Shown here: one piece after another, positions 1-58,409 of the stretch | Layout of the letters: every line of letters begins with the position of its first letter | Numbering within the stretch: position 1 is the stretch's first letter | Source of the DNA: Gammaproteobacteria bacterium | GTDB taxonomy: Bacteria > Pseudomonadota > Gammaproteobacteria > UBA4575 | Direction: 5' to 3' | Length of the DNA stretch: 64,000 nucleotides | Assembly (NCBI GenBank): GCA_965242685.1 | Contig: OZ251487.1 | Coordinates: 865,199-929,198, forward strand | Position numbers and translations under genes: made by a program | Notes under the pieces: generated by a model | Told to the model about the DNA's origin: nothing | Seen by the model: only the letters and a program-made list of their open reading frames with translations | Database searches by the model: none

Positions 1-197
1 AAAAATCATGCAGTATTCTTAAAAATATGGGCCCGCAAATTCAGTGGATAGAGAGCTTTGTAACGGATGACAAGGTCTATTGCACGTATATTGCTCCCAA
101 TGAGGAAGAAATACTGAAGCATGCCAAAGAAGGTGAATTCCCGGCAAACAAAGTGGCGCAGATCAAGGGTGTGATTGACCCCACGACCGCAGAGTAA
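1..197 (+). CDS. DUF4242-family small protein, 5'-truncated by the window edge (ORF is open to position 1; stop TAA at 195-197)
   Basis: Translation ...KSCSILKNMGPQIQWIESFVTDDKVYCTYIAPNEEEILKHAKEGEFPANKVAQIKGVIDPTTAE matches the remembered C-terminal consensus of DUF4242 proteins (GPEIQW...YVTDDKIYC.YIAPNEE...GFPAN...IDPTTAE). Not in the ORF track because it is shorter than 60 aa after the first ATG. Confidence 0.55.
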   Translation, partial: KSCSILKNMGPQIQWIESFVTDDKVYCTYIAPNEEEILKHAKEGEFPANKVAQIKGVIDPTTAE

Positions 198-250: not shown

Positions 251-541
251 TCAGGGTGACCCAAAGATACAGCCGTTCCTGGTAACTACCGTAGGAAAGT
301 CTCCTATGTCACGCATCACCTGCGCGACGTTGTAACCCTCCAGCATTGGTTTCACCTCATCTCCCCGAAGACCATTGAGGCATTCGTCCATGACGCGCAG
401 GATATACATGCCGCTATCTTCAACGACGCGAAACTGTATGCTTTCCAAGCCTTCATGCCGCCAACGTTCAATGGCCGCACCCGGGAAATGTTCTCCAAGA
501 TATTCCTCCACAAGTACTACTATATTTTCTTCATGCAACAT
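251..541 (-). CDS. hypothetical small protein (96 aa), possibly distal member of the mtoX operon
   Basis: Intact ORF; its start lies 19 bp downstream of the tlpA-like stop on the same strand. No recognisable motif. The alternating hydrophobic pattern suggests a ferredoxin-like alpha/beta fold. Confidence 0.35.
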   Translation of the reverse strand: MLHEENIVVLVEEYLGEHFPGAAIERWRHEGLESIQFRVVEDSGMYILRVMDECLNGLRGDEVKPMLEGYNVAQVMRDIGDFPTVVTRNGCIFGSP

Positions 542-560
542 CTAAATGAATACCCGCTAC

Positions 561-1160
561 TCAACGAAGGCTACTCCACCCCATGAATTCCTTAAAAATG
601 CCGAACAATGTGCGGTCTTGCATGGCGGCAGGTGATTCGTCGGCCATCAAGTGTCCGTGAGAAACCATCACCCCGGTCAGAAACTCTACTATCTCGGGCG
701 AATCCCATTGGCGCTCACCTGTAACCTTGTAGACTAGCCTGCCGTCCGGGTTGATTAAAAATGTGGTCGGTAACCCAAGAACCCCCCAACTTGCAAGGCT
801 CATGTCTTTGTCAATTAGCACTGTAAAATTAACCGGTACCTTATCCAAAAAGTTTCTGACATCCGCCAAGCTAGGGCCGACATGCACTCCCACTACTTCC
901 AGCCCCTTGCCGGTAAACTGGTCATGTATATTACTCAATGACGGCATTTCCCTCCGGCACGGCGCGCACCACGCCGCCCAGAAGTTCAGCAGTACAAACT
1001 TGCCGGCATAGTCATCCAGGCTGATTACCGCACCATCAACTGTACTTAAACTAAACCCATCAGCTTGCGGCTCGGCAGTGATGGGGTACATGATCTTACC
1101 CGCCCATGCAGTGTTCATAGCTGATAACACCAAGATAAAAAGTACTATTCCTTTCCACAT
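561..1160 (-). CDS. TlpA/ResA-like periplasmic thiol:disulfide oxidoreductase (thioredoxin fold, WCAPC active site)
   Basis: Signal-peptide-like N-terminus (MWKGIVLFILVLSAMNTAWA) followed by FWAAWCAPCRREMP, the CxxC motif typical of TlpA/ResA. Start moved to the internal Met that precedes the signal peptide. Confidence 0.8.
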   Translation of the reverse strand: MWKGIVLFILVLSAMNTAWAGKIMYPITAEPQADGFSLSTVDGAVISLDDYAGKFVLLNFWAAWCAPCRREMPSLSNIHDQFTGKGLEVVGVHVGPSLADVRNFLDKVPVNFTVLIDKDMSLASWGVLGLPTTFLINPDGRLVYKVTGERQWDSPEIVEFLTGVMVSHGHLMADESPAAMQDRTLFGIFKEFMGWSSLR

Positions 1161-1222
1161 CTTTATAAATCTTTTCCACGCACAGCGCTCATCTAAAGCA
1201 ACTCGTTGCCTGGCCTGATACA

Positions 1223-2560
1223 TCAGTATTCCCATTTGTTTTCATGTACCCAATTCGGGTCATCAGTGCCCAAGTCCCCTATGGGTGCCGCGAAGGCGTC
1301 CGCTACCAAAGTCGCAATGTTGTTCCCCGTCAGTGACTTTAGAAAAGCAGCCAGGTCATCCATTTCCGTATCAGTCAGGTTAAGTGGTGTGATCAAGGGA
1401 CTGAGCAGCTCATTGGGAATCCCGCCCCGATTGTAGAATTCAATAACTTCGCGCAGGGTGTGTAGGGAGCCATTATGCATGTAAGGGGCCGTCAGTGCCA
1501 CGTTACGTAAGGAAGGGGTACGAAACTTCCATCGGTCATGGGGGTTTTCAGTTACTTCGTACAAACCCAGGTCATTTTCTCTTGTCCCGAAGGCCTTGCG
1601 AATCGCTTTGGCGTCAAACTCCGTGAATATCCCGGGCGCCAGCTGTACTTTTGCCTTCTCAGGCTCAATGCCCATAGATGCCTGATAACCAAGCCCGGTA
1701 TTGTGCAGACGGTTGTCCGTGAACAATGCATAGTCATCGTGTATAAGGTGACAAGTACTGCAAGCACCTTTGCCGGTAAAAATGCTGAATCCCCGTTTTG
1801 TTTGTGCATCTACCGCTTTGTCCTGTGCACCAAAGTACCAGCGATCAAATGGTGAGCCGGCAGCATTGAGAGTACGTTGGTAACTGGCAAGTGCCATACC
1901 AATCGTTTCCATGGTCGGCCCGCGACCATCAAATGCGCTTTCAAACAGATTATCATACTCAGGAATGGCCTTTATCTTGTTTATTACATAGCCGATTGAA
2001 GGATTTGCCATTTCATTACGCGCCAGTAATGGCGACCAAACCTGTTGCTCCAACGTTGATTCACGACCGTCGTGAAAGATCTTTTGCAGATACGCTGCAT
2101 TGTATATCGTCGGTGCATTGCGCTTGCCGGTGCGCCCTTCCACCCCTATCGGAATTTCCAACTCATTGTTGGTAAAGCCCTGCTCAGGTATATGGCAGAT
2201 CGCGCAAGAAAATGTGTCATTGATCGACAAGCGTCGGTCAAAGAACAGTCTTCTCCCCAGTGCTACTTTTTCAGCGGTAACCAGATTGTCGGCGGGAACC
2301 GGTACCTCAGGCAACCCCAGAACAGGATGGGTAATAAACTCCAATAAGTCGGCTTCCCGACCGATGCGTTTTTGCAGGTCAAGTGAGTTTGTTCTGTAGT
2401 CTACAGATTCATAGCCTTGTTTATTGTCGCCGGGGCCGAATGTCGCCTGTCGTTGCGGGGAATCCGCCAAGCTTGCCGACAAACAGATCGACACCAGGGT
2501 AGCAAACGCTGCATGCCTGGACACACTGATGACACGCACAAAGCTATCAATAGGTTGCAC
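1223..2560 (-). CDS. di-haem cytochrome c peroxidase family protein (MauG/CcpA-like)
   Basis: Two CxxCH haem-binding motifs (CAICH and CSTCH). N-terminal signal peptide. Length ~445 aa and conserved blocks of bacterial CCP/MauG (GKRNAPTIYNAAY, FHDGR). Confidence 0.85.
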   Translation of the reverse strand: MQPIDSFVRVISVSRHAAFATLVSICLSASLADSPQRQATFGPGDNKQGYESVDYRTNSLDLQKRIGREADLLEFITHPVLGLPEVPVPADNLVTAEKVALGRRLFFDRRLSINDTFSCAICHIPEQGFTNNELEIPIGVEGRTGKRNAPTIYNAAYLQKIFHDGRESTLEQQVWSPLLARNEMANPSIGYVINKIKAIPEYDNLFESAFDGRGPTMETIGMALASYQRTLNAAGSPFDRWYFGAQDKAVDAQTKRGFSIFTGKGACSTCHLIHDDYALFTDNRLHNTGLGYQASMGIEPEKAKVQLAPGIFTEFDAKAIRKAFGTRENDLGLYEVTENPHDRWKFRTPSLRNVALTAPYMHNGSLHTLREVIEFYNRGGIPNELLSPLITPLNLTDTEMDDLAAFLKSLTGNNIATLVADAFAAPIGDLGTDDPNWVHENKWEY

Positions 2561-2573
2561 AATTAATCTGTAC

Positions 2574-3311
2574 TCACTCGAGAGGGGGTGTCACCTCAAG
2601 AAGAAGTGTCTTGATGTCAGCAGTAATAAGCTGGTCATGCAGAAAAGAAACGCTGTACTGCTGTCGAATATTTTTTGATCGGTCAATCAGAAACGCTCGC
2701 AGTATATGTGACATTGAGTTCGTGTAATTTCCATCTTCGTCATATTCCCTTATCACCATCTGTCCATATCGGTCAAGAATGGGCCGTAACCGCTCTTCGG
2801 AGGCGGTAGTTAAAAATAACCATCGCGGCGGTTCATCTTCTCCAAATCCTGCACCGTATCGTCGCATCACTTCAGGCGTATCGCGCTGAGGATCAAAACT
2901 GATACTGATGAGGCGAAGCCGGTCAGCAAAAGCGGGAGTATTTTTGAACCGTTCCTTGATTTTATAGAATACTGCGGTGGATAAAGGACACCCGTTTAAG
3001 TCGGTGCAATTACTGTACATGAAAGTAAGCAGTACGATTTTATCGCCAAAAAGATCTTCTAGTTCAAGTTCCTCACCATTGACGTCAAGAATCGTACCGC
3101 CACCTGCCGTACCTAAGCCGGGCAAGGCATAGGTACCGGGCTGGGGAACTTCAAAAGGCAGGTCGGGCGCCCATCCGTTGGCAATCACTTGAATTTCGGC
3201 CCTTGCCGCATGAGAACCAGGCAAAAAGGTATCGTCGTCACTCCTCCGGTCGAGACATGCCGTCAACATAAACAACGATACCAGTAGTAAAAGTCTCGCA
3301 CTGTTTTTCAT
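2574..3311 (-). CDS. SCO1/SenC-domain copper chaperone-like lipoprotein (atypical Cx5C instead of CxxxC)
   Basis: Lipoprotein signal (LLLLVSLFMLTAC). Thioredoxin-like SCO block FMYSNCTDLNGCP...ISISFDPQRDTPEVMRRYG resembles SCO1/SenC (FGFTHCPDVCP...SVDPERDTPEVL), but the Cys spacing differs. Confidence 0.75.
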   Translation of the reverse strand: MKNSARLLLLVSLFMLTACLDRRSDDDTFLPGSHAARAEIQVIANGWAPDLPFEVPQPGTYALPGLGTAGGGTILDVNGEELELEDLFGDKIVLLTFMYSNCTDLNGCPLSTAVFYKIKERFKNTPAFADRLRLISISFDPQRDTPEVMRRYGAGFGEDEPPRWLFLTTASEERLRPILDRYGQMVIREYDEDGNYTNSMSHILRAFLIDRSKNIRQQYSVSFLHDQLITADIKTLLLEVTPPLE

Positions 3312-3325
3312 TTGCGGATACAGCC

Positions 3326-3362
3326 TTTCAAAAGCAACAAGGCCACCTCGAAGGCGGCCTTG
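3326..3362 (-). terminator. putative intrinsic terminator/attenuator between mtoX and the SCO1-like gene
   Basis: Minus-strand RNA caaggccgccuucgagguggccuug forms a ~10-bp GC-rich hairpin followed by uugcuuuug. Sits in the 102-bp spacer downstream of the mtoX stop. Confidence 0.45.
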
Positions 3363-3413
3363 TTCAAGTTGTTCAAGCTGTCTGGTTGCATAACTTGCAA
3401 CAAGGCTACTCCT

Positions 3414-4799
3414 TTATTCCGTTTGGGACAGCAGCACTTCAGCTTGAGGTTTTTGTGAATACAGTGAGTAGGCACCAAACCTCATCTGGTGTGCGCGCCC
3501 CAGCTTGAGTTCATAAAAATCTACCGTGAACTCGTGCGTAAGTTTCTCGCCGTCCCAACTGAACAGCTTGAAAAACTGTTCGTCCTTCTCGCCGGTATTA
3601 TCCCAATTACCCAACAAGGAAGACGTAAAGTAAGTGCGCTTGCCGTCCCAGCTTTGCGAAATCATGTTGACCTGAGAACCGATTACATGCTCATAAACCT
3701 GCTCGGGTTTAAAGGGGTCTTCAATATTAAAAAAGCGGGTTTTGCCATCCAAGAAAGTCTGTACCCAAAGCCCTTTGTCATCCGCAGTGATGGAAATATC
3801 AACCGGTAGCCAAGTTCCCAAGGGACTGCCTTCGGTGCTGATGCCGCCCACGTCCTTCGCCTGCCATTCGCCCGCCTCATCTTCATAGATCAACCAGATT
3901 CTCGAGGTCAATGCGGTAGTGGTCAAGCAATAGTTATTTCGTGAACCCCACGCGCAGCGGATTTCCAGTGGCGCGCCGGGCACCTCAAAAACTTTCTTGG
4001 GTTTGCGTGTGTGCAGGTCCCAAACCACGACAGTATTACCGAAGCGTTTCATGGCCTCCTCGTCACTTATCATCTCCCCTACATTCATCATGTAGTTGGA
4101 CCAACCGGTAAACGAAGAAGTAACCATTATGTTTCGCCTGGGCAAAACACGTACGTCATAGCCGTATCCATCGGCAACGTTGCCTACCTTTTTCGCACCA
4201 CGCAAGTCTTCATCGGTTGGCATCCAATGGGCGGCGATAAAGTCGCCCTCATTGGAGTATTCCGCAAGACCGGTGCGTCCGCCATGGTCAACGTTGTTGG
4301 ACAAGGCACTGACCATGATACGGCCCGGTAGTGCATACATGGTGTGCGGCCCTACCATACCGCCAGTCTTCTCAACAAAATCGGTAATAACCTTGTGTAA
4401 CCTGGGTTTGGATGGATTGGAATGAACATCAAAGATAAATATCTTGTTGCTGTCCAATCCTCCTGCAAACAGATAACGACGGTCATCAGTGAGGCCGGAA
4501 TGGTGGGCCTCGTTGCGTCCCCCCACGGAAAGCACGTTGACTACCTTCCCATAGTGCTCTGAAGCCGGATTGACGGAAACGGTAACCAATTTGTCCTGTT
4601 CATCTCCCAAACCTTCTACCCCCAACGTCCATATATATACATAGTCTTCTTGACCAACAATTTTTGCCATGTAGGGAGACATGCACGTCTCATCTGCAAC
4701 GGCAGCAGAGTGAAAACCAAGCAAAGACACCAGCACGGTACATATAAATGTAAGCGTGCCCCATGCCCATCTGAATTTTAATTTTGTCACTTTCTTCAT
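3414..4799 (-). CDS. mtoX: selenium-binding protein 56 (SBP56) family protein, methanethiol oxidase MtoX homologue, periplasmic
   Basis: Signal peptide. Blocks NEAHHSGL and KPRLHKVI align with ELHHSGWN and PKLHKVIEP of human SELENBP1. Length 461 aa matches bacterial MtoX. Sits with SCO1/SenC and MauG-like genes, as described for Hyphomicrobium mtoX clusters. Confidence 0.85.
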   Translation of the reverse strand: MKKVTKLKFRWAWGTLTFICTVLVSLLGFHSAAVADETCMSPYMAKIVGQEDYVYIWTLGVEGLGDEQDKLVTVSVNPASEHYGKVVNVLSVGGRNEAHHSGLTDDRRYLFAGGLDSNKIFIFDVHSNPSKPRLHKVITDFVEKTGGMVGPHTMYALPGRIMVSALSNNVDHGGRTGLAEYSNEGDFIAAHWMPTDEDLRGAKKVGNVADGYGYDVRVLPRRNIMVTSSFTGWSNYMMNVGEMISDEEAMKRFGNTVVVWDLHTRKPKKVFEVPGAPLEIRCAWGSRNNYCLTTTALTSRIWLIYEDEAGEWQAKDVGGISTEGSPLGTWLPVDISITADDKGLWVQTFLDGKTRFFNIEDPFKPEQVYEHVIGSQVNMISQSWDGKRTYFTSSLLGNWDNTGEKDEQFFKLFSWDGEKLTHEFTVDFYELKLGRAHQMRFGAYSLYSQKPQAEVLLSQTE

Positions 4800-5109
4800 C
4801 TCTTATGACTCCGTCTATGGTTTATTTTTCAAGGCCACGGGCCTGAATTTTCTCAAGATTAAAATAACTCCACTAAATCAAAAGGCCACAAACTCTCAAT
4901 AAGCTACTTTTACATTATGCCATATCCGTTTTGCTCAATCAAAAGCATGATGTATAAATTTTGGCTTGTAAAGGCAATACCATCGCCAGACAAAAGGTCT
5001 ATAGCCGGCATCCCGCCATATGGACTACCTCCAAAGCCGTTACTGACACAGTAGAAAAATTACCGTCCGACTCGTCTTCGTGAAAAATTCGCTATACTTT
5101 AACGAAAAA

Positions 5110-5496
5110 CTACTTGTACTGGATATAAGCGAAACGTGGGTCGTCGGGCGGGCCTTCCAAGTCCCCTTCTTCCCGGCCTGGCTGCCACATCAGCACGTCT
5201 TCAATCTTACCCGCCAGCTCAAAATCCTTGTTTGTGACTCCTTTTGCAGCATGATTCATCAGCTTGCACACTACAAAGGCATAGGATACCGTTAAGTCGG
5301 GATGATGAAATGCCGCCTCTGCCAAATGACCAATAGTATTGACCACCATCAATGTACCCTTCCAACCATGCGTCCTGTATTTTCGACGTATCCACCCGTT
5401 TTCATAAAACCAGGTGGGCAGTTCCTCTGCCAGTCGTTCTTTGATTTGCTCTTCTGAATAGGTCTGTTCTGATTTTATCTCGCGCCACTTTGACAT
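5110..5496 (-). CDS. pterin-4a-carbinolamine dehydratase (PCD/DCoH) family protein with a ~25-aa C-terminal extension
   Basis: Motif EAAFHHPDLTVSYAFVVCKLMNHAAKGVTNKDFELAGKIED matches the PCD signature (E..HHPD....Y..V.V.L.TH...G.T..D..LA..I). Start placed at the MMSKW Met pair preceded by GGGGGTG; the ORF could extend to 5526. Confidence 0.6.
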   Translation of the reverse strand: MSKWREIKSEQTYSEEQIKERLAEELPTWFYENGWIRRKYRTHGWKGTLMVVNTIGHLAEAAFHHPDLTVSYAFVVCKLMNHAAKGVTNKDFELAGKIEDVLMWQPGREEGDLEGPPDDPRFAYIQYK

Positions 5497-5636
5497 CATC
5501 ACACCCCCGTCAATCCGTTCATCCAACTTTAAAAGTGAAACCTACTCTTCAACAAGATAAAAGTATCAGTTTTGCATTCAGTTTGCAGCTTTTTGATAAC
5601 ATTCCAGAACACGAAAAGAAATAAACTAAGGTCACC

Positions 5637-6179
5637 ATGTACAAGGAACCGATGACCGTTGCCGGAATGATGGCCGCAAGCTGGGGAATCATCGGATTTT
5701 CTCTGCTACTGGGTTTTTCTACGTGGCGACTCACTCTGAATTCAATTGAAGCGTTACAAATGCCGTTGAATCGGACACACTGGTTAGTATTCGCCATTTT
5801 TTTGGTCTTCATGGTTTACAGCGAAGGCTATAAAGGCTTCCAAAAAAGCTTCTCGCCACGATTTGCCGCGCGATTCAGACATCTCCTGTACAGTGCCACG
5901 CCTATTCAATCCCTGCTGGCACCCCTGTTCTGCATGAGTTATTTCCATGCCACTAAAAGGCGTATTATCGCCACATTTACATTGACTGCGGCGATCATCG
6001 CTTTTATTTTACTATTCAGACTCCTCCCACAGCCATGGCGAGGATTGCTGGATGCGGGCGTTGTGGCCGGATTGATCTGGGGAATGATCACCACCGCCTT
6101 ATTCTGTGTCAAAGTCTTTACTGACAGGACGTTTTGCTACGACGCTGAAATGCCGATAAACTCTAACGGCAACAAGTAG
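5637..6179 (+). CDS. hypothetical integral membrane protein (about 4-5 TM helices)
   Basis: Hydrophobic segments throughout. No recognisable motif. Its stop abuts the ABM monooxygenase ORF by 1 nt. Confidence 0.45.
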   Translation: MYKEPMTVAGMMAASWGIIGFSLLLGFSTWRLTLNSIEALQMPLNRTHWLVFAIFLVFMVYSEGYKGFQKSFSPRFAARFRHLLYSATPIQSLLAPLFCMSYFHATKRRIIATFTLTAAIIAFILLFRLLPQPWRGLLDAGVVAGLIWGMITTALFCVKVFTDRTFCYDAEMPINSNGNK

Positions 6180-6205
6180 TGCCAAATATCTACCGGGAGG
6201 ACGTT

Positions 6206-6508
6206 ATGTTTGTTGCTATGAATCGTTTCAAGATCATCCCCGGACGTGAAGAGAAGTTTGCTGAAATATGGAAAAATCGTGAGTCTTTTCTGGATGGAGT
6301 CCCCGGATTCAAGGAATTTCACTTGCTGAGAGGGCTATCCAACGATGAATACACCCTGTTCGCCTCTCATTCAATTTGGGAATCCGAGCAAGCATTCATA
6401 AACTGGACAAAATCGGAGGCATTTCGCAAAGCCCATGCAAGCGCCGGGAAGGCGCGCTCGGTCTACCTTGATAAACCAGAGTTTGAAGGCTTCAATGCAG
6501 TGCTTTAA
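6206..6508 (+). CDS. antibiotic-biosynthesis-monooxygenase (ABM) domain protein
   Basis: MFVAMNRFKIIPGREEKFAEIWKNRESFLDGVPGFKEFHLLRG...SHSIWESEQAFINW is the ABM ferredoxin-like pattern. Start set at the internal Met. Confidence 0.7.
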   Translation: MFVAMNRFKIIPGREEKFAEIWKNRESFLDGVPGFKEFHLLRGLSNDEYTLFASHSIWESEQAFINWTKSEAFRKAHASAGKARSVYLDKPEFEGFNAVL

Positions 6509-18961: not shown

Positions 18962-18997
18962 GTTATGGAGCTGCAATCACAAGTATTACGACCTGCG

Positions 18998-19108
<111 letters not shown>

Positions 19109-21168: not shown

Positions 21169-21726
21169 TTATTTTATATCCAGCTTACGACCATTGATTG
21201 ACGTAGAGCCTGCAACTTTTACATTCCTAGTCAACATATCCATTACCGGACATTGATTTTCGACGGCATCAACAAGCGCTTCTAATTTTTTCCTTGATGC
21301 CGAGCTTTTTATGTTGGTTTCATATTCAATTTCGGAAAAACCAGGATACGCCATACTATCACCTTCAATTCCCAACAAACCTCTGACGTCCAGATTTGCG
21401 GTCAGCTTTACGTCACATTCCTCCAAGGGTATGCCTCTGATTGATGCCAAGGCCGAGAACATAATTTGCTGACACGTTCCCAAGGCCACCAGCACCAACT
21501 CGACCGGGCTTGCCCCTAAATCCGTACCCCCAAATGCCGGAGGCTCATCAACTAACAGTTTGTGCCCTTCCTTACGAATTTGGGCCTTGCATAAAACACC
21601 ACCTTCCCAGTGCGAATGAACGCGGTATTTGAACTTTCCAAAGTCTGCATCTCCATTGGCTCTTTCGATAATATTGTTGATAGAGGCCCTTATATGCTCC
21701 AGGCTTTCGACATTTTCTTCACTCAT
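21169..21726 (-). CDS. OsmC/Ohr-family peroxiredoxin-like protein
   Basis: DEPPAFGGTDLGASPVELVLVALGTCQQI block characteristic of OsmC. Confidence 0.7.
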   Translation of the reverse strand: MSEENVESLEHIRASINNIIERANGDADFGKFKYRVHSHWEGGVLCKAQIRKEGHKLLVDEPPAFGGTDLGASPVELVLVALGTCQQIMFSALASIRGIPLEECDVKLTANLDVRGLLGIEGDSMAYPGFSEIEYETNIKSSASRKKLEALVDAVENQCPVMDMLTRNVKVAGSTSINGRKLDIK

Positions 21727-21976
21727 ATAACAATCACCTAACCGAACAATTCACGCGTGTACGCCCCCCGAATAGGCTCCATAAAAGTCTTAACTTCTGC
21801 ACTTCAATTATGCTATCTGCGACGAAAAGTATTTAGGTACTCGGAGTATATCGTTCTACATCGTGCACAGGCACTGCAAACTATCCTATCACCCTTTGCA
21901 GCAACCTATTGCGCACCTTGCACCATTTCACGCGAGGGATGGATGGGTACCACAGAAAGTTATAGTCTAATCACCC

Positions 21977-22285
21977 CTAATCGTCATAAAGATTGGTGTA
22001 AGTGTCCATACCGACTCCCCCGTGATACTTGGGAAATGCGGCCACATTATTAGTGATATGCTTTCTCGGCATGGTTTCCCAAAGCTTTTCTGCATCATCC
22101 ATTTCCAGAACTTCTATACTCTCGTTGTCGTCATCCTGAACAAAGTAATTTGAGTTCAATGCTCGAAACAGATACTTCTTGTTATCTTCGTCATACGCCA
22201 ATAACGTTGACGTATCTGTACGATACGTCTCTGTATCAACTACTATTTGTAGCGCCTTATACTTAGGAGTGCTTTCTTCCGTCAC
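21977..22285 (-). CDS. hypothetical acidic protein (102 aa), GTG start with a good SD (GGAGGTG)
   Basis: Intact ORF with SD. Highly acidic, no known motif. Confidence 0.4.
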   Translation of the reverse strand: MTEESTPKYKALQIVVDTETYRTDTSTLLAYDEDNKKYLFRALNSNYFVQDDDNESIEVLEMDDAEKLWETMPRKHITNNVAAFPKYHGGVGMDTYTNLYDD

Positions 22286-22342
22286 TTTTCACCTCCATTA
22301 AACACACTTCTAATCATACATTTGTGAAACAGTCTTGGGTCG

Positions 22343-22939
22343 CTAGCTGTTCTTCTTCAGCGATTTGCGATAAATTGTAGGCCCCAGCGCACCGACTATA
22401 CTGAGCCTGTCCGCCGGAATTATCCTGGCAAAATTAACAATTGATTTGGCCAGTTGGTCCAACCGTTCAAGGACATCTTCATTTATCAGGTCATAGTTCG
22501 AGTAGTGCTCATTGTTGGCATAAACGCCACCCGGTAATACATGGGCAAGAAAAAATCCCATTATAGGCTTCAGTTCATGCTCTATGGCCAGGTAGTGATG
22601 ATCACTGCCACCCGTCGCAATCAAACCGACAGGCTTACCCAAAAGCGCATCATTTGGAATAAGATCAAACATGTTTTTCAGCAAACCAGTATAGGCCCCC
22701 CTGTACATGGGTGTGCCGATTAAAAGAGCATCCGCTTCTACTATCTTATCAATGACTACTTTTGAGTCCCCTTCATACTTTGCGGGGTCCCTACCATCAC
22801 AAAACTGCACATCATATTCACTGATATTAAGGGCCTCTACGTCAATGGTATCGTCATATCGTTTAGCAAACTCCAATGCCTTCTCAATCGCAATTAAAGT
22901 CTTACGGCTCAACCCTCCCGATAAACCAAGTAATTTCAT
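22343..22939 (-). CDS. NAD(P)H-dependent FMN reductase (SsuE/MsuE/SfnF family)
   Basis: MKLLGLSGGLSRKTL...ADALLIGTPMYRGAYTGLLKNMFDL...LIATGGSDHHYLAIEH follows the SsuE-type flavodoxin-like reductase pattern. Confidence 0.8.
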   Translation of the reverse strand: MKLLGLSGGLSRKTLIAIEKALEFAKRYDDTIDVEALNISEYDVQFCDGRDPAKYEGDSKVVIDKIVEADALLIGTPMYRGAYTGLLKNMFDLIPNDALLGKPVGLIATGGSDHHYLAIEHELKPIMGFFLAHVLPGGVYANNEHYSNYDLINEDVLERLDQLAKSIVNFARIIPADRLSIVGALGPTIYRKSLKKNS

Positions 22940-23043
22940 TTTCTACCTCCTTAAACGATTGTAATTGTTATGAGATAAATCAATGAAAAAAAGAGCTATG
23001 GTAATAAAGACAGCCCATAACGGTTATATATAGCTATACTACC

Positions 23044-23082
23044 AAAAAACGCGACTGTCACCAAACGAGACAATCGCGTTCC
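23044..23082 (-). terminator. rho-independent terminator downstream of the LLM monooxygenase gene
   Basis: Minus-strand RNA aacgcgauugucucguuuggugacagucgcguuuuuu: a 10-bp stem followed by a U6 tract. Confidence 0.55.
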
Positions 23083-23179
23083 TTTGGTAAACGCTCAAGA
23101 GCGTATCCTTAACGTAACCTAGTAGGCTAAAAGAACAAGGCCTTATTCTACTTAGGCGTAAGGATCTCTTGCGTTATAC

Positions 23180-24352
23180 TTACGCCGACTTCTTCTTACC
23201 GACTACTCGGCCCTTGCGAAGGTCTTCCTCCTTCTCGCGAACTAACGGAATGACCTTTTCACCAAACTGCTTAAGTTCCCAGTTATAGTGCAGGTATCCA
23301 GTCAGAACAACCTTTATGCCGAGTTGCTTAAGCTCAATGATACGATCGGCGACAGACTCTGGCGTCCCGATAAGACCCGTTTTGAACCCATCGTTATATT
23401 GTACCAAATCCTCAAACGATGAATTCGCCCACATGCCTTCACCTTCTTTCGATGAACGACCGGCTTGTTTGACTGCTTCACCAAAGCCTTTTACGGCTTC
23501 AACGTCCGCATTCACGATAATATCTCGCAAAGTTTCCGTCGCTTCTTCCATCGTATCACGAACGATACAAAAGCCATTACAACCGAACTGAAGCTCGCCG
23601 GGGTCTCGTCCAGACTCTACGGCCGCTGCCCTGGAGTCGTCCATAATTTCCTTGAAACCTTTGTTGGTATTGCCGTTCATGAACAGTACGTCGGTAACAC
23701 GCCCGGCCATTCTCCTTGCATCTTTGGAATTTCCGCCTTGGAACACCACGATTCTATGCAGAGGCTTCGGCAGCATTGGCGCCCCGTCAATCTGGTAGAA
23801 ATCGCCATAGAACGTGAACTCATCTTCTGTCCACATACCTTTCATGATACGGATAAATTCCTCAGACCTGCGGTAGCGCTCCGTATGCTCAAGCCAAGGT
23901 AGCCCATAGCCCGTGTATTCGCCCTTGAACCAGCCACTTACAATATTGATGGAAGTTCGGCCCTGCGTGCAGCAGTCAAGAGAAGCCTGCATCTTCGCAA
24001 CGATTGCGGGATGCCACAAACCTGGATGGCACGCCGTAATGACTTCAATCTTCTTAGTGTGCTGGAGAATTACATTCGCAATCGTAAATGCCTCATGCTG
24101 ATGGTCTGCACCATAGCTGGCAAACCAACGGGTTTGAGCCAGTGCGGTTGCAAATCCGGAATCTTCGGCATCCTGTGCATATTTGATATTTGCCTCTGGC
24201 GTCCAATCAGTATCCATAGGCAAGGTCGTAATGACCAAGCCACCAGAGATATTGGGCACCCAATATGCAAATTCTATTTGATCTGAGTCTACCCAAGCCG
24301 ACGGCTTTAACGAGTTCTCAGAGTTTGGTAATAATCTTGGATATTTTGCCAT
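23180..24352 (-). CDS. LLM-class FMNH2-dependent monooxygenase, SfnG (dimethylsulfone monooxygenase)-like
   Basis: Luciferase-like TIM-barrel blocks (FAYWVPNISGGLV, SGWFKGEYTGYGLPWLEHTERYRRSEEFIR, FEDLVQYNDGFKTGLIGTP) resemble the remembered SfnG/SsuD subgroup. Adjacent SsuE-like reductase. Confidence 0.75.
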   Translation of the reverse strand: MAKYPRLLPNSENSLKPSAWVDSDQIEFAYWVPNISGGLVITTLPMDTDWTPEANIKYAQDAEDSGFATALAQTRWFASYGADHQHEAFTIANVILQHTKKIEVITACHPGLWHPAIVAKMQASLDCCTQGRTSINIVSGWFKGEYTGYGLPWLEHTERYRRSEEFIRIMKGMWTEDEFTFYGDFYQIDGAPMLPKPLHRIVVFQGGNSKDARRMAGRVTDVLFMNGNTNKGFKEIMDDSRAAAVESGRDPGELQFGCNGFCIVRDTMEEATETLRDIIVNADVEAVKGFGEAVKQAGRSSKEGEGMWANSSFEDLVQYNDGFKTGLIGTPESVADRIIELKQLGIKVVLTGYLHYNWELKQFGEKVIPLVREKEEDLRKGRVVGKKKSA

Positions 24353-24710: not shown

Positions 24711-25949
24711 TCATTGCTTTTTAATCGGTATCACGTGACCCATCTTTTCCGCCTTCGTATGAAGATATCTTTGACGAAATTCATGGCCATGATCATGGCT
24801 CCCCGACGTCAACATAGGTATCCGCTTGACCAGCTTGATGCCGTAATTTTCCAACCAATTACACTTATTCGGATTATTGGTCATAAGCTGGACACGCTCA
24901 ATGTTGAGTGCATGCACAATATGTGCGGCAATGGCATAATCCCTATGATCGGCATCAAAACCTAATGCCCTGTTTGCCTGCACGGTATCAAACCCAGATT
25001 CCTGTAGGGAATATGCCTTGAGTTTACCGGATAAACCGATACCTCTACCTTCCTCTCTCATGTAAAGCACGACTCCCGTACCATGTTGCTCAATCATTTG
25101 CATTGCCACGTGTATCTGATCACCGCAATCACACCGTAGCGAGCCAAATACATCACCGGTAAGGCACTCAGAGTGAATCCTGAGTAGTACGTTGTCGGTT
25201 TGGCTCCATGAGCCTTTCACCAAGGCCAAGTGTTCTTCTTCAGTAAAGGTATCCCGAAATGCAATCAATTCAAACTCTCCCCAGTGAGTGGGTAGCTGGA
25301 CGGTTACAATGCGCTCCACCCTGGATTCATAACGAAGTTTATATTTGATCAAGTCTTGGATAGATATTATTTTCAGTAAAAACCGTTTCGACAGCTTGAA
25401 TAAGTCCGGGACCCTAGCCATAGAGCCGTCCAGCTTCATAATTTCGCACAAAACGCCTGCTTTTCGTAAACCTGCCAAGTCCATCAAGTCAACGGCTGCT
25501 TCGGTATGCCCATTTCTCTTAAAAATGCCGCCATCTGATGCCTTGAGAGGGAAAATATGACCGGGACGTGAAAAGTTACTTGCATCCACTTTTGAATCTG
25601 CCAATGCCTTTACCGTTTTGGCTCGGTCGGCGGCAGAAATGCCCGTTGTCGTCCCATGCTTGAAGTCTACCGAAACAGTAAAGGGGGTCGCATGCAAGGC
25701 ATTATTTTCATCTGGTGGCACCATCGGCTTCAAACCCAATTCATCCGCCCGTTGCTGATCAATTGCCGTACAAATCAAACCACGGCCATGCGTAGCCATA
25801 AAATTGATCATCTCAGGCGTACATTTATCCGCCGAACCGACGAAGTCACCCTCATTTTCACGGCTTTCGTCATCGACAACAATTACCAGCTTGCCCCGCC
25901 GTATATCTACCAAGGCCTCTGGAATTGAATTAAAGCGAGCCGTTTTCAT
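24711..25949 (-). CDS. ribBA: bifunctional 3,4-dihydroxy-2-butanone-4-phosphate synthase / GTP cyclohydrolase II
   Basis: N-terminal DHBP synthase blocks (VVVDDESRENEGDFVGSADKCTPEMINFMA). C-terminal GCH-II zinc site (CDCGDQ) and RALGFDADHRDY. Confidence 0.9.
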   Translation of the reverse strand: MKTARFNSIPEALVDIRRGKLVIVVDDESRENEGDFVGSADKCTPEMINFMATHGRGLICTAIDQQRADELGLKPMVPPDENNALHATPFTVSVDFKHGTTTGISAADRAKTVKALADSKVDASNFSRPGHIFPLKASDGGIFKRNGHTEAAVDLMDLAGLRKAGVLCEIMKLDGSMARVPDLFKLSKRFLLKIISIQDLIKYKLRYESRVERIVTVQLPTHWGEFELIAFRDTFTEEEHLALVKGSWSQTDNVLLRIHSECLTGDVFGSLRCDCGDQIHVAMQMIEQHGTGVVLYMREEGRGIGLSGKLKAYSLQESGFDTVQANRALGFDADHRDYAIAAHIVHALNIERVQLMTNNPNKCNWLENYGIKLVKRIPMLTSGSHDHGHEFRQRYLHTKAEKMGHVIPIKKQ

Positions 25950-31701: not shown

Positions 31702-32940
31702 CTAAAACGGAACCCGTACCGAAAGGGTTCCGAAAACCCCGAACGCATCCGCATAGCTCAGCTCGGCCGGGAAATGCGTAACGTTGTCTCCGTAACGCTG
31801 TCCGGCTCTCGCATAGCGTACCTTTGGTACGTGCGACAAATATTCGATCCCCACGCCAAGACGAAAGACCACGTCGTCAAAATACACAGCCCGCAACGAC
31901 GTTTTCAAGCGAAGCGTAGCGGCGGCACGCGAATCATCGACTTTCAGATCGGTCGGCAAGTCTATCATTGCCGACGACAGTACGGTTCTTTGATGCCCCT
32001 TGTATTCGGCATCAAGATAGTAGACACCGATGTCACCTTCGGCGGCAAACGCCCAACGTCGTTTGAACGGAACATCAAGGTTGGCGCCGACAAGCAACCC
32101 ATAATACGAGGCTCGCAGGCGCTCATTCAACGTCATGTAATTTTCATCTGGCGTCCTATTCGTTGCCTCATACGAGAAAATATCGGTACGCTGATACAAG
32201 CGTTTAAAACTCGGCCCGGCGAAAAACGACATCTTGCGCGCCGTCCCCCGCCAGTCGCCCCGAACGCCACCAATGACGTCAACACCTCCGAAGTCCACCT
32301 CCCTTCTCGTATGTATACGGATCGTGTCTCCCCAGGCAAAATTGGGCGTATGTGCAAGGGGTCTTCCGTCTATGGCGCCGATCCAGCCGGAAAACTTGAG
32401 GCCCCGAGTCGTTCTGATCGCCTCAAGCAAGCCGCTCAACCTATCCGCATCGCCGAATATTTCAGCCCTTCGCGCCTCTCTCTGTGCCGCCGTTAAGGCC
32501 ATCAATTCCGTCAGCGCGATCCCGAACTGCTCCGCTTCCAGCCTATCCCATAACTCACTCGTTCGTTGATATTCGTTGAAATGCCTGGCGTCGTGCGAAG
32601 TAAAAAAACCGCGCGCCTCGGTGAACACGTTGCGCCCGAAGGCGTCGTACGTACCACCCACCGCCAGTTTGAGTAGCGGGCCGCCGCGAGAAGAGTCATA
32701 GTGGTCGAGCAAATCTGTCAGCTTCTCATCGGAATCCGTCTCGATAAACGGGCTTGATTCTGGCAGGTCAAGAAAAAAGGCGCCGACTTCGGCGCGCAGG
32801 TAAGTGCCGCTAGTTTCGTTCATCGTCGCCCCCCGCATCTGAGAATAGGCGGGTAACGCCACCACCAAAACGAGACATGCGACCAGCTTCCCGGAAATCG
32901 TGCTCAAGTTCAAACCGTTCATCGGATCCTCATGCGACAA
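31702..32940 (-). CDS. putative outer-membrane protein (signal peptide, C-terminal ...LSVRVPF)
   Basis: N-terminal signal sequence and a terminal aromatic residue typical of OM beta-barrels. The middle region looks helical, so the assignment is tentative. Confidence 0.4.
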   Translation of the reverse strand: MSHEDPMNGLNLSTISGKLVACLVLVVALPAYSQMRGATMNETSGTYLRAEVGAFFLDLPESSPFIETDSDEKLTDLLDHYDSSRGGPLLKLAVGGTYDAFGRNVFTEARGFFTSHDARHFNEYQRTSELWDRLEAEQFGIALTELMALTAAQREARRAEIFGDADRLSGLLEAIRTTRGLKFSGWIGAIDGRPLAHTPNFAWGDTIRIHTRREVDFGGVDVIGGVRGDWRGTARKMSFFAGPSFKRLYQRTDIFSYEATNRTPDENYMTLNERLRASYYGLLVGANLDVPFKRRWAFAAEGDIGVYYLDAEYKGHQRTVLSSAMIDLPTDLKVDDSRAAATLRLKTSLRAVYFDDVVFRLGVGIEYLSHVPKVRYARAGQRYGDNVTHFPAELSYADAFGVFGTLSVRVPF

Positions 32941-33663: not shown

Positions 33664-33755
33664 TGGCGGAGAGAGAGGGATTCGAACCCTCGGTGCCCCG
33701 TTGAGGACACACTCACTTTCCAGGCGAGCCCGTTTAACCACTCCGGCATCTCTCC
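33664..33755 (-). tRNA. tRNA-Ser (anticodon GGA), 92 nt with long variable arm, CCA encoded
   Basis: Minus strand GGAGAGAUGCCGGAGUGGUUAAACGGGCUCGCCUGGAAAGUGAGUGUGUCCUCAACGGGGCACCGAGGGUUCGAAUCCCUCUCUCUCCGCCA. D-loop, anticodon loop CUGGAAA, long extra arm, T-loop GGUUCGAAUCC, acceptor pairing 5' GGAGAGA with 3' UCUCUCC. Confidence 0.85.
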
Positions 33756-33770
33756 CGATTCAAAAGTATA

Positions 33771-34115
33771 TCACGATTTCTTGCCGCTGCCCGGATTGTA
33801 GACGGGGGCGGGAAAATGGGCGACGTTTTCGCCGGCCTCCGAAATTTTCGCGACGCCCTGTTTGTCGACTTCATCCACTCTGATCACGGCGTGCACGGGC
33901 ACAAAAAAACGCTTCACCCGGTCAAATTCGGTTTTGAGCTTTTCTTCGCCCGGATCAATGACGACGCTGTTGCGCTCGTTGAAGGTCAGGCTCTCGATGG
34001 TAACAAAGCCGTACAGATCGGATTGGTATACCTGTCGCGCATACACTTCGTATACTTTGTCTTGGTTGTAAAAGGTCACTTTGTAAAGGCTTTTCTGCAC
34101 GGTACGTTCAGACAT
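33771..34115 (-). CDS. DUF1820-family protein
   Basis: [38 protein letters not shown] matches the DUF1820 N-terminus as remembered. Confidence 0.5.
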
Positions 34116-35460
34116 CGGAGGCACCCATGTTTTTGATGATTTCTTCGCCGAATCCAGAAGTGCTTACCAGCGTTGCCCCGGGCAGCAGGCGTTCGAGGTC
34201 TTCCTGCACTTCTTTTGAGGTGCCGGGCCGCCGCCCCTTGGCACGAAACCCCGCCCGGGCGCGGGCCAGGTCATAGGTAACGGTCTTCGAGGCAATGGCG
34301 CCCGATATGCCGGTAATGATCAGGTCCGCCGCTTCGCACCAACCCAGGTGACGCAGCATCATTTCCGCCGACAAGATGATGGAGCCGGGATTGACACGGT
34401 TTTTCCCGGCATGCGCCGGCGCGGTGCCGTGCGTGGCCTCAAAACAAGCGACGTCGTCCGAGACGTTCGCCCCCGGGGCGATACCGATTCCACCCACTTG
34501 CGCGGCCAGAGCATCGGAAATGTAGTCGCCATTCAGGTTCAACGTTGCAATGACGTCGTAGTCTTCGGGTTTGAGCAGGATCTGTTGTAAAAAGTTGTCG
34601 GCCAACACGTCCTTGATCAGGATTTCCCTGCCATTGCCGGGATGGATGATCCTACACCACGGGCCTTCGCCGATAATTTCGGCGTTAAACTCCTGTACGG
34701 CCAGATCATAGCCCCAGTTGCGGAACGCGCCTTCGGTAAATTTCATAATGTTTCCCTTGTGTACCAGGGATACCGAACGACGATCATTGTCTATGGCGTA
34801 TTGAATGGCCTTGCGTATCAGGCGCACCGAACCTTCCTTCGAAACCGGTTTAATGCCGATCCCCGAGGTCTCCGGAAAGCGTATCTTGGTGATGCGCATG
34901 TCATCGCGTAAAAATTTGATGACTTTTTTGGCGCCTTCACTCTGGGCCTCCCATTCAATACCCGCGTAAATGTCTTCGGTGTTTTCACGAAAGATCACCA
35001 TGTCGGTCGTTGCGGAATCTTTCAGTGGCGTGAGCGTTCCCGAAAAATAGCGAATCGGACGCACACAGGCAAACAGATCCAGCTTCTGCCGAATGGCCAC
35101 GTTCAATGAACGCATCCCCTCGCCTATCGGCGTTGCCAGCGGCCCCTTGATGGACACCACGTATTTTTTCATCACGTCAAGCGTTTCTTCGGGCAAAAAG
35201 TCCGTCTGGCCATATAAACGGGAGGCCTTCACGCCGGCGTAAATCTCCATCCAACTGATACGCCGTTCTTTGTTGTAAGCCTTCTTGACAGCCGCGGTCA
35301 CGACGCGCCTCATCACCGGCGTAACGTCTATGCCGATGCCATCGCCTTCTATGAACGGAATGACGGGAACGTCGGGGACGTCCAGGGTCTTGTCCTGATT
35401 CAGCCTGATCGCCTCTCCTTCCGCAGGGACTTGAACGTGTTCATAGGGTTGGTTTGCCAT
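34108..35460 (-). CDS. icd: NADP-dependent isocitrate dehydrogenase (homodimeric type, with a ~20-aa C-terminal insertion)
   Basis: Near-colinear with E. coli Icd ([41 protein letters not shown]). Confidence 0.9.
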
Positions 35461-35582
35461 GTGTACCTCAAATGTATTCGAACTTTAGGGAATCATAATG
35501 GATGCACGGCCGGGGGCACACTAGTAAGTATTCGCTTGCCGGACGTTACACGTCAAGAGTTGATCAGCCAAAAATGACTCGT

Positions 35583-36887
35583 CTATCCGGTAGCGGTCTT
35601 GGAATCGAACTGCTGTTCTTCGGTTGACCCCGACAGTGCCGTAACGGATGATTGTCCACCCTGAATTGTGGTCGTCACTTCATCAAAATAGCCGGCGCCC
35701 ACTTCTTGTTGGTGGCTGACAAAGGTGTACCCTCGCTTGCGCGCATCGAACTCCCGCTCCTGTACCATATCCACGTAAGCCGTCATCCCTTCCTCTATAT
35801 ATTTCTTGCCCAAACTAAACATGTTGTACCACATGCTGTGAATACCCGCCAAAGTAATGAATTGGTACTTATATCCCATGGCACCCAGCTCACGCTGGAA
35901 CTTGGCAATCGTGGCGTCGTCCAGGTTTTTCTTCCAATTAAAGGAAGGTGAACAGTTATAAGCAAGGAGCTGTTCAGGGTGTTCCTTGCGCACACCTTCG
36001 GCAAACTTCTTAGCAAAATCCAGGTCCGGCGTGCCCGTTTCGCACCAAATCAAATCGGCGTATTCGGCATAGGCAACGCCACGCGAGATCGCTTGTTCCA
36101 ATCCGTTTCTGACGCGAAAAAAGCCCTCGGAAGTACGCTCTCCCATCAGAAACGGTTTATCGCGTTCATCATGGTCGGAGGTGATCAAGTTGGCGGCCTC
36201 GGCGTCGGTTCGCCCCAGCACCACGGTCGGCACCCCCATGACGTCGGCGGCAAGACGGGCGGCATTCAGTTTTTGACAGGCTTCCTGCGTGGGAACAAGC
36301 ACCTTGCCCCCCATGTGGCCGCACTTTTTTACGGCGGCCAGCTGATCTTCAAAGTGTACGCCCGCAGCCCCCGCAACAATCATGTTCTTCATCAGCTCGA
36401 AGGCATTGAGAACGCCGCCAAAACCGGCTTCCGCATCGGCGACTATGGGTACAAAGTAATCCCTGTCGCCTTCGCCGTGCAGCCACTGAATTTCATCGGC
36501 GCGTTTGAAGGCGTTATTGATTCTGCGCACCACGGTGGGTACGGAATCATACGCATAGAGCGACTGATCCGGATACATGGTTTCACTGGTGTTGGCATCC
36601 GCCGCAACTTGCCAACCGGACAGGTATATGGCCTTGATGCCGGCCTTTACCTGCTGAACGGCTTGACCGCCCGTGAGCGTACCCAAACAGTTGATATAGT
36701 CTTCTTCATTGACAAGTTGCCAAAGCTTCTCCGCACCGCGTTTCGCAAGGGTGTGCTCTATCTGCAACGAGCCGCGAAGACGCACCACGTCTTCAGCCGT
36801 ATAGTCACGCCGGACATCTTTCCAGCGAGGATTATTCTTCCATTCCTCATCAAGTTCCTTTATCTGTTCAGTTCTGCTCTTGCTCAC
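35583..36887 (-). CDS. aceA: isocitrate lyase
   Basis: ICL signature KKCGHMGGK and the SGWQ block. 434 aa. Confidence 0.9.
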
Positions 36888-50458: not shown

Positions 50459-50481
50459 GATATTTAAGCAGGCGGAAAAGG

Positions 50482-57603: not shown

Positions 57604-58230
57604 TCAGACATTGATTGAAATATCTCGCAAGCTGCCCGAGTTGACGTCCTCCGCCGTAGGTAAGCAATTGTATGGCTCCAATTTTTCCTTGCTTGTAGAG
57701 GGATGGGACTTTACCTTTTCATACCAGGCACTTACATGCGAACGAGAGCTTATCAAGTCGCCCGCGCCACGTATTTCGAGCAAGTTACAACATGCCGACC
57801 AGTGGATGTCCGCCAATGAAAAATCCCCGCATATAAAATCACCCTTCTTCGGGCGATTTTGTAGCTGCTGATCCAATCCGTCAAAAAGTGTCGCCAGGCC
57901 GGCTTCGTCGATGTCGTCACCCAACAGCGGCTGGACTTTTTCCACGACAATGCCCGCCCATTGATACATTACTGCCCGAAGTACCCCATTGCGCGGCACC
58001 AAAGACGGACCAAATCCCTTGTCGTCCAAATATGACATCACCGCATAGGTGCCATACACTAAAAAATCAATGTCTTGTAATGCAGGGCCTATGCCGTAAG
58101 GGGATTTTTCCAGAAAACTGCTGTCATCCAATCCACTGATGATCTGCGCTTCAATATCTACCCCTTTCTCGCCTGCCGTCTGCAAACATTTTCCAGTATT
58201 GACACAACTTGGGTGTCCACTCAAAATCAT
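57604..58230 (-). CDS. glutathione S-transferase-like protein
   Basis: Thioredoxin-like N-domain and helical C-domain pattern (VMSYLDDKG, FICGDFSLADI). Start set at the MILSGHP Met. Confidence 0.55.
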   Translation of the reverse strand: MILSGHPSCVNTGKCLQTAGEKGVDIEAQIISGLDDSSFLEKSPYGIGPALQDIDFLVYGTYAVMSYLDDKGFGPSLVPRNGVLRAVMYQWAGIVVEKVQPLLGDDIDEAGLATLFDGLDQQLQNRPKKGDFICGDFSLADIHWSACCNLLEIRGAGDLISSRSHVSAWYEKVKSHPSTSKEKLEPYNCLPTAEDVNSGSLRDISINV

Positions 58231-58409
58231 TTTTGTTCTTAGCTGATCGCCAATCATATCTCCCCCTACTGATACAGTTCATCGGGCCGGCTCTTTACCG
58301 CCACCCCAAACATTAAAAATAAACAGCTCTCAACAAATGAACACAATTAAGACCCTACCCAACCAAAATTTAAGTCGGACAGGCCTTCAATGTATAAAAA
58401 GCCGAGGCT

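Follow-up and report, generated by a model that had tools for sequence, protein, structure and literature searches.

How a periplasmic methanethiol oxidase acquires its copper, and perhaps a protein-derived cofactor, is the question raised by a five-gene cluster near the start of a 64,000-nucleotide stretch of DNA from a Gammaproteobacteria bacterium of lineage UBA4575 (assembly GCA_965242685.1, contig OZ251487.1, positions 865,199 to 929,198; hereafter the window). Oxidation of methanethiol is a key step of the marine sulfur cycle of dimethylsulfoniopropionate (DMSP) and dimethylsulfide (DMS), and the locus leaves this general picture unchanged; what it bears on is the acquisition of the metal and of the proposed cofactor of the oxidase, MtoX. 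In our view the locus probably encodes an MtoX that is periplasmic and depends on copper, along with a periplasmic module dedicated to its maturation. The genes of the cluster, in the order of their reading, and the convergent gene that bounds them are as follows.

3414-4799, minus strand: mtoX (ORF 1), 461 amino acids (aa), a methanethiol oxidase, copper-dependent and periplasmic by family (NF052453, PF05694)
2574-3311, minus strand: sco (ORF 2), 245 aa, a SCO1/SenC-domain lipoprotein with lipobox LTAC, the motif C102-TDLNG-C108-P and His202
1223-2560, minus strand: mauG-like gene (ORF 3), GTG start, 445 aa, a predicted MauG/MbnH-type di-haem enzyme with CAICH at 119, CSTCH at 267, Trp175 and Tyr376
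561-1223, minus strand: tlpA-like thioredoxin gene (ORF 4), a predicted TlpA/ResA-like periplasmic thiol:disulfide oxidoreductase with WCAPC; the longest ORF (561-1235, 224 aa) has internal ATGs at 1223 and 1160
251-541, minus strand: orf96 (ORF 5), a conserved 96-aa protein with the invariant C terminus DFPxVVTxxGCIFGSP and conserved Cys54 and Cys91
3-197, plus strand: 3' part, encoding the C terminus, of a convergent SCO4226-like (DUF4242, PF14026) gene, outside the cluster and bounding the co-directional genes

The oxidase, its gene neighbours and orf96

The ORF listing agrees with the initial annotation, which had described five co-oriented genes at 251-4799 separated by 102, 13, 62 and 19 bp, when gene 4 is started at position 1160. 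The ATG at 1223 shares nucleotides with the stop codon of mauG (TGATG), so that translational coupling is an alternative to the 1160 start; the gene may begin at either ATG, a correction to the earlier start. Each motif quoted in the initial annotation is present, namely NEAHHSGL and PRLHKVI in MtoX, C-TDLNG-C in the SCO-like protein, CAICH and CSTCH in the di-haem protein and WCAPC in the thioredoxin, and hidden Markov model (HMM) searches and alignments upheld all four of its domain assignments. At the other end of the series, plus-strand frame 3 is open from the window start and belongs to the SCO4226-like gene, which is annotated as a PF14026 protein of 90 aa on an identical contig (L083) and at loci L084 to L086. 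A 70-aa ORF on the minus strand (orf70, 6-218) showed conservation in tblastn searches and was rejected as the antisense shadow of this convergent gene, so that orf96 closes the co-directional series.

The product of the first gene matches the NCBIfam equivalog model for methanethiol oxidase, NF052453, at 728.3 bits (cut-off 650) over profile positions 1-407 of 408, and the SBP56 match on which the initial annotation had staked its identification is significant (PF05694, E 6e-47). The protein is 65% identical to the genetically characterised mtoX product of Ruegeria pomeroyi; that gene has been mutated, and methanethiol and DMSP were shown to induce it (PMC5739008). Among 85 homologues, His99, His100 and His152 are kept in all and His437 in 84, and Cys39, Cys282 and Cys291 are likewise nearly invariant. 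We match the four histidines, by order and motif (AHHSG, GPHT, RAHQ) and not by direct alignment, to the copper ligands proposed for the enzyme of Hyphomicrobium sp. VS, His89, His90, His140 and His412, for which copper dependence has been demonstrated (PMC5739008). The predicted activity is that of the family, the copper-dependent oxidation of methanethiol to formaldehyde, H2S and H2O2, the last a product reported for the MtoX reaction (PMC5739008). By inspection, the N terminus (MKKVTKLKFRWAWGTLTFICTVLVSLLGFHSAAVA|DE) resembles a Sec-type signal peptide with no twin arginine, which fits the Sec-exported periplasmic methanethiol oxidase proposed for Methylophaga (PMC6548844).

Directly upstream of mtoX and on the same strand lies a homologue of pterin-4a-carbinolamine dehydratase with an N-terminal extension (5110-5526), 74-91% identical among close relatives that share its position; the linkage to mtoX may be merely syntenic (lepA, a metallo-beta-lactamase-fold gene, folP … the dehydratase gene). 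Tandem mtoX duplicates, 72-79% identical to the MtoX of the window, occur in relatives, at loci L025 (5349-8350) and L084 (1361-4396), where they precede one sco-mauG-tlpA-tlpA-orf96 set.

A scan of one genome per species yielded 80 loci with close MtoX relatives, nearly all from uncultured Gammaproteobacteria and including Ca. Porisulfidus, Ca. Thiodiazotropha and Arenicella. In 63 of the loci, 4.5 kb or more of sequence was available beyond mtoX, and 57 of these 63 have sco and mauG after it; a TlpA-like gene follows mauG in 47 of these 57 (thus 47 of the 63), and orf96 is present in 18 of the 47. The same gene order has thus been found again across dozens of independent genomes and is not due to chance. 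The locus is a member of the mtoX-sco-mauG family known from Hyphomicrobium and Ruegeria as an mtoX-SCO1/senC-mauG cluster (Eyice et al. 2018, PMC5739008). The proposal that TlpA extends the described cluster proved only partly new, as the mto clusters of Methylophaga thiooxydans have been drawn with a gene named 'tlpA' (TlpA-like family / SCO1-domain; Kroeber and Schaefer 2019, PMC6548844) and gammaproteobacterial versions commonly include a TlpA-type gene. Many relatives carry an extra TlpA-like copy, often with CNVC, that separates mauG from the TlpA orthologue. Each of the 18 loci that have orf96 contains at least two TlpA-like matches, the first usually CNVC; the window is unusual in that the second copy alone is retained together with orf96. 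The window also has no second, canonical SCO gene of the kind present in many relatives, and has either lost this gene and the first TlpA-like copy or never had them.

The product of orf96 is clearly a real protein, judging from its conservation: homologues fall into 33 clusters of database sequences, 48-84% identical, almost all with a length of precisely 96 aa. Searches of Pfam and NCBIfam returned no family match, and a confident AlphaFold2 model (mean predicted local distance difference test score, pLDDT, 86.6; alpha/beta) found no significant fold match in the PDB. We regard orf96 as a lineage-restricted, uncharacterised add-on, probably a cytoplasmic accessory protein, and it may take no part in maturation at all. 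That it instead functions within the maturation system, say as a cytoplasmic Cys-based carrier of copper or sulfur or as a regulator coupled to the cluster, seems to us possible and somewhat unlikely. The gene always stands directly after the TlpA gene, at gaps of ~5 to 85 nt, in the 18 of 63 loci that have it, and its product combines two conserved cysteines with the invariant C-terminal GCIFGSP; furthermore, in a more distant, different genome of 1.7 Mb (locus L086), a 32%-identical homologue comes directly after sco(CDDVNGC)-mauG with no mtoX or tlpA adjacent, and is convergent to an SCO4226-like gene as in the window. However, the protein lacks a signal peptide while all other components are periplasmic, it is missing from sister clades that keep mtoX-sco-mauG-tlpA, and it has no recognisable fold or family; the synteny could reflect no more than vertical inheritance in one lineage. 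The linkage to the sco-mauG module is suggestive, with shared ancestry and the cytoplasmic location of the protein as confounding factors. A profile search extended the family to 96 representatives of ~95 aa, which we set aside as a functional lead because the distant members stand in unrelated neighbourhoods. At locus L086 (3963-6575) the sco gene, which has a His-rich insert (HHGNDDSDGHQHH), mauG and the orf96-like gene lie directly after rpsP-rimM-trmD-rplS, and are followed by genes of the tetrahydromethanopterin (H4MPT) pathway (Mpt_N, MCH, ATP-grasp).

The SCO-like, di-haem and thioredoxin-like proteins

The second gene encodes a SCO1-SenC protein (PF02630, E 1.8e-15, 57.5 bits, cut-off 22.8) that matches ScoI (PDB 4WBJ) at E 2.7e-9. 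The canonical copper site of SCO proteins consists of CX3CP and a distant histidine (PMC6669012). Alignment to ScoI and BsSco shows that the protein reads CX5CP (C102-TDLNG-C108-P) in place of CX3CP, which bears out the Cx5C spacing of the initial annotation; HMMER alignments to ScoI and to Thermus Sco (2K6V) place a two-residue insertion between the cysteines, with FMYSNC-TDLNG-CPLS in the window against FGYTHC-PDV-CPTS in ScoI. His202 aligns with the histidine of the ScoI 'MDH' motif, the third copper ligand, and is invariant in the alignment of homologues. The protein had been called atypical, and it is non-canonical in spacing; it is not peculiar, as the same spacing is a conserved hallmark of mtoX-linked SCO proteins, that of R. 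pomeroyi (SPOA0270, CGDVNGC) included. The pattern C-x-[D/E]-x-N-G-C occurs in all 74 SCO genes downstream of mtoX in the related loci and in 120 of 120 close database homologues, whereas CPD[V/I]C stands in all 32 second SCO copies from those loci. These second copies, present in many relatives (L001, L003, L004, L007, L012, L023, L025 to L036 and others), usually read divergently from mtoX and stand ~500 bp upstream of it, with the pterin-4a-carbinolamine dehydratase gene on their other side.

We also looked at four alphaproteobacterial mtoX-sco loci, among them two from Skermanella and one from Microvirga that have no nearby mauG; in these three the motif is CGD[V/I]C. Throughout the cases examined, the NG insertion thus appears to go together with mauG; we treat this as no more than a lead, since the class without mauG covers just two genera. 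A search of the full-text literature turned up no description of a CX5C Sco motif, and the apparent generality of CX5CP among mtoX-linked SCO proteins and its co-occurrence with mauG would be new points. Taken further, SCO proteins with C-x-D-x-N-G-C might be a copper-chaperone class of their own, so far undescribed, that functions only alongside a MauG-type enzyme, sometimes as a fusion, the two jointly building a copper site with a protein-derived cofactor in periplasmic MtoX, with the TlpA-type reductase and cytoplasmic orf96 as further parts of the pathway; as a whole, this scheme is speculative and we regard it as unlikely.

The di-haem protein has a signal peptide by inspection and belongs to CCP_MauG (PF03150, E 3e-51). 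It scores below the equivalog cut-offs for MauG (TIGR03791, 209.7 against 443.85 bits) and for MbnH (TIGR04039, 241.6 against 362.85 bits), which places it in a separate, mtoX-linked subfamily. Its best solved relative, and the sole full-length alignment in the PDB, is 6E1C (E 1e-42), which we take to be MbnH; MauG matches at E 1e-27, and canonical peroxidases match chiefly through the N-terminal haem domain. Because MtoX releases H2O2 (PMC5739008), the initial annotation had held that this protein could equally be a detoxifying peroxidase. Peroxide stress is real, as catalase and peroxiredoxin are induced in DMS-grown Methylophaga (PMC6548844), and the N-terminal haem domain matches MacA (4AAL) at E 2e-41, nearly equal to the match to 6E1C. 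What separates the two functions in the literature is the ligation of the E-haem, His-Tyr in MauG-type oxidants, which are poor peroxidases, and His-Met in H2O2-detoxifying enzymes (PMC11892367). Tyr376, in the C-terminal domain (…EVIEFYNRGG), aligns with MauG Tyr294 and with the tyrosine of 6E1C, at a position where MacA has methionine, and is kept in 69 of 69 related loci, as is the inter-haem Trp175 in 73 of 73. A MauG-type tyrosine haem ligand is thus predicted by alignment, and, together with the published discriminator, disfavours plain detoxification; fusions of sco and mauG in some bacteria (PMC5739008, PMC6548844) likewise indicate a role in maturation. A canonical bacterial cytochrome c peroxidase that removes MtoX-derived H2O2 and leaves MtoX unmodified is in our judgement quite improbable. 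As a precedent for what a MauG-type enzyme might do to MtoX, the conversion by MbnH of a tryptophan of the copper protein MbnP into kynurenine (PMC11951088) appears at least as good as the formation of tryptophan tryptophylquinone (TTQ).

The fourth product is a thioredoxin of the TlpA/ResA/DsbE-like kind (PF00578 AhpC-TSA, E 2.5e-25; PF08534 Redoxin, E 2.4e-21) and matches ResA (PDB 1ST9, E 2e-29) and TlpA (1JFU, E 2e-17). It scores below the NCBIfam models for TlpA (NF047696, 87.2 against 230 bits) and ResA (NF002854, 117.8 against 170 bits), and no MauD model match was listed in the NCBIfam search. ResA, its best subfamily model, is known from cytochrome c maturation. Its hydrophobic N terminus, MWKGIVLFILVLSAMNTAWA, is a signal peptide or membrane anchor on inspection alone, and every match to orthologues except one has a C-x-x-C motif, in most cases C-x-P-C. 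We rejected its C-terminal tail (SHGH...M...M) as a conserved metal-binding extension, since it is variable or absent in orthologues. By analogy with Bradyrhizobium, where TlpA reduces ScoI and CoxB ahead of metallation (PMC6669012), its predicted role is to reduce the Cys pair of the partner SCO protein.

Least probable of all, and by our estimate very unlikely, is that the SCO-like and TlpA-like proteins are general thiol-disulfide redox proteins, acting in respiratory oxidase assembly or on persulfide or sulfide from MtoX and standing next to mtoX by inherited synteny: their shared thioredoxin fold, the affinity of the latter to ResA, the departure of CX5C from copper-binding CX3CP and the proposal that Sco proteins are themselves reductases (PMC6669012) would allow it, but the linkage to mtoX holds across both Alpha- and Gammaproteobacteria, with a SCO identity of ~40%, the distal histidine is retained, the separate canonical SCO of many loci could serve other copper enzymes, and no oxidase genes lie near the cluster in the window.

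Transcription signals and the proposed pathway

Two signals on the mtoX strand bear on how the five genes are expressed.

4914-4942, minus strand: candidate sigma-70-type promoter for mtoX, TTGATT, 17-nt spacer and CATAAT, with TG, ~115 nt 5' of the ATG
3326-3364, minus strand: intrinsic-terminator-like hairpin, a 13-bp GC-rich stem with a 3-nt loop, then GCUUUUG

The promoter candidate was found by a promoter scan and coincides with the sole strongly conserved block 5' of mtoX. When the regions 5' of mtoX from 10 relatives are aligned, the -35 element and GGCATAATG show little or no variation while the flanks diverge, and a GGAG Shine-Dalgarno sequence 8 nt ahead of the mtoX ATG is conserved; promoter function is inferred from this footprint. 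The hairpin (inverted repeat 3336-3348 / 3352-3364) lies 50 nt past the mtoX stop codon and ~25 nt ahead of the sco start, in a spacer with a folding energy of -41.5 kcal/mol (z = -4.2). Of 74 related loci, 62 have in this spacer a hairpin of -10 kcal/mol or better that is immediately followed by a T-run, and its stems differ by clade (GGCCGCC…, GGCTAAC…, AGCCGCCCTG…, GAGCCCAAG…), which argues for selection on structure. Its single occurrence in the window led us to reject a dispersed repeat of the repetitive extragenic palindromic (REP) type. The conservation of this hairpin after mtoX is a new point.

These observations modify the single operon put forward in the initial annotation, for which co-orientation and short gaps speak, and against which stands the strong, conserved hairpin between genes 1 and 2. 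The short distance from hairpin to sco ATG means that the accessory genes must rely on read-through, and unequal expression of the five genes is probable. The 'one operon' is probably a strong mtoX transcript with attenuated read-through into the accessory genes, the hairpin acting as an attenuator or 3'-stabiliser that would give more enzyme than chaperone.

The gene families and their order, the four histidines of MtoX, CX5CP with its histidine, the MauG-type tyrosine, the CxxC motif, the promoter footprint and the hairpin are the observed basis on which we propose a pathway. Transcription of mtoX would start at the conserved sigma-70 promoter; most transcripts would end, or be stabilised, at the hairpin, and a fraction would continue into sco-mauG-tlpA-orf96, yielding much enzyme and little chaperone. 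Unfolded pre-MtoX would be exported by the Sec system. In the periplasm the TlpA/ResA-like reductase would maintain the Cys pair of the SCO lipoprotein in the reduced state, and may likewise serve Cys39, Cys282 and Cys291 of MtoX. Reduced SCO would take up copper through Cys102, Cys108 and His202 and hand it to the four-His site of MtoX. The di-haem enzyme could then use H2O2 made by MtoX to reach a high-valent bis-Fe(IV) state and convert an MtoX residue by oxidation into a protein-derived cofactor, which would be TTQ-like, following Eyice et al., or kynurenine-like, as for MbnH/MbnP.

Several points weigh against a dedicated maturation module. Recombinant cytosolic oxidases of the SBP56 type, human SELENBP1 and RdMTO, are active with copper alone, with no MauG or SCO (PMC13603461), so that a need for helpers is unproven also in the case of the periplasmic MtoX type. 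Neither the di-haem nor the thioredoxin protein reaches any NCBIfam equivalog cut-off, and the SCO protein lacks CX3CP spacing, so that copper binding by it is assumed. Six of the 63 loci have mtoX with no nearby helper genes, and ten have no TlpA. The hairpin could moreover be a full terminator, in which case the accessory genes would need a promoter inside mtoX, whose transcripts would still meet the hairpin. The dedicated module nevertheless remains our preferred reading, and the locus offers three handles on it: a CX5CP Sco variant that apparently tracks MauG, evidence for a MauG-type oxidant, and a hairpin that probably determines how much enzyme is made relative to chaperone. All three are testable in the genetically tractable R. 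pomeroyi, whose SCO protein carries the same motif.

Surroundings and known systems

About 18 kb from mtoX, the window contains a second module for C1-organosulfur compounds, at 21169-24352 on the minus strand, with the riboflavin gene ribBA (24711-25949) just upstream.

23180-24352, minus strand: SfnG dimethylsulfone monooxygenase (NCBIfam TIGR04021, 555 bits, cut-off 383)
22343-22939, minus strand: NADPH-dependent FMN reductase
21977-22285, minus strand: unassigned 102-aa ORF
21169-21726, minus strand: OsmC-like protein

Beyond the convergent SCO4226-like gene, two close relatives (loci L085, 6057-9815, and L084, 9063-10825) encode formyltransferase/hydrolase-type proteins (Amidohydro_3, FTR, GXGXG), which fit H4MPT-linked oxidation of the formaldehyde released by MtoX; the corresponding region falls outside the window. 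Upstream of the cluster, at 5637-6508 on the plus strand, a 180-aa predicted membrane protein with no family match is followed by an HmuQ-type haem-degrading protein (NF053649, 151 bits, cut-off 130), whose start overlaps the stop of the 180-aa ORF.

Elsewhere the window holds a type I restriction-modification system (45511-50491, minus strand) with HsdR (ResIII, EcoEI_R_C), HsdS (Methylase_S) and HsdM (N6_Mtase), a further N6/N4 DNA methylase, apart from this system, with a fused T5orf172 domain (59363-60646), and adjacent genes for isocitrate dehydrogenase and isocitrate lyase (34108-36887, minus strand). Two minus-strand ORFs, of 412 aa (31702-32940) and 217 aa (57604-58257), had no Pfam match; the former, which overlaps a 240-aa ORF on the opposite strand, had no NCBIfam match either. 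Rfam searches of the window returned only one tRNA (33667-33755) and the signal recognition particle RNA (18993-19088).

Among known systems, the clusters of Hyphomicrobium sp. VS and R. pomeroyi DSS-3 (SPOA0269-0271) are closest, with the first three genes in the same order and orientation and, in R. pomeroyi, the MtoX identity and CGDVNGC motif given above. Unlike them, the window has neither an upstream IclR regulator nor a downstream S-(hydroxymethyl)glutathione dehydrogenase, and has a TlpA/ResA-like gene and orf96 after mauG; it also has the hairpin after mtoX, conserved among the related loci surveyed, nearly all of them gammaproteobacterial.

The mto-clusters 1 and 2 of M. thiooxydans resemble the window in a gammaproteobacterial mtoX, in SCO and MauG functions and in a third thioredoxin-fold gene, 'tlpA', with all products predicted to be Sec-exported and periplasmic (PMC6548844). 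There, however, sco and mauG are fused and followed by pdo, sqrB and sulP, whereas in the window they are separate genes (13-bp gap) with no sulfide-oxidation genes after them. The Methylophaga 'tlpA' is described as encoding a product with the SCO1/SenC/PrrC domain and may thus be a second SCO gene and not one for a CxxC reductase.

The TlpA-ScoI(-PcuC)-CoxB pathway of Bradyrhizobium diazoefficiens shares a periplasmic CxxC thioredoxin-like protein and a membrane-tethered Sco with a Cys pair and distal histidine (PMC6669012). The target in the window would be a four-His site in a beta-propeller oxidase and not CuA, the SCO protein has CX5CP in place of CX3CP, the cluster has no PcuC gene, and the thioredoxin (87 bits against the TlpA cut-off of 230) is more ResA-like than TlpA.

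Finally, the di-haem enzyme can be compared with MauG and pre-methylamine dehydrogenase and with MbnH and MbnP (3L4M, 6E1C). It differs in falling below both equivalog cut-offs, in a presumed substrate that would have the SBP56 fold and in a thioredoxin partner with no MauD match. It shares with them two CxxCH haems, an inter-haem tryptophan and a predicted tyrosine axial ligand (PMC11951088, PMC11892367); like them it is encoded beside its presumed substrate, and that partner, as MbnP, is a copper protein by family.

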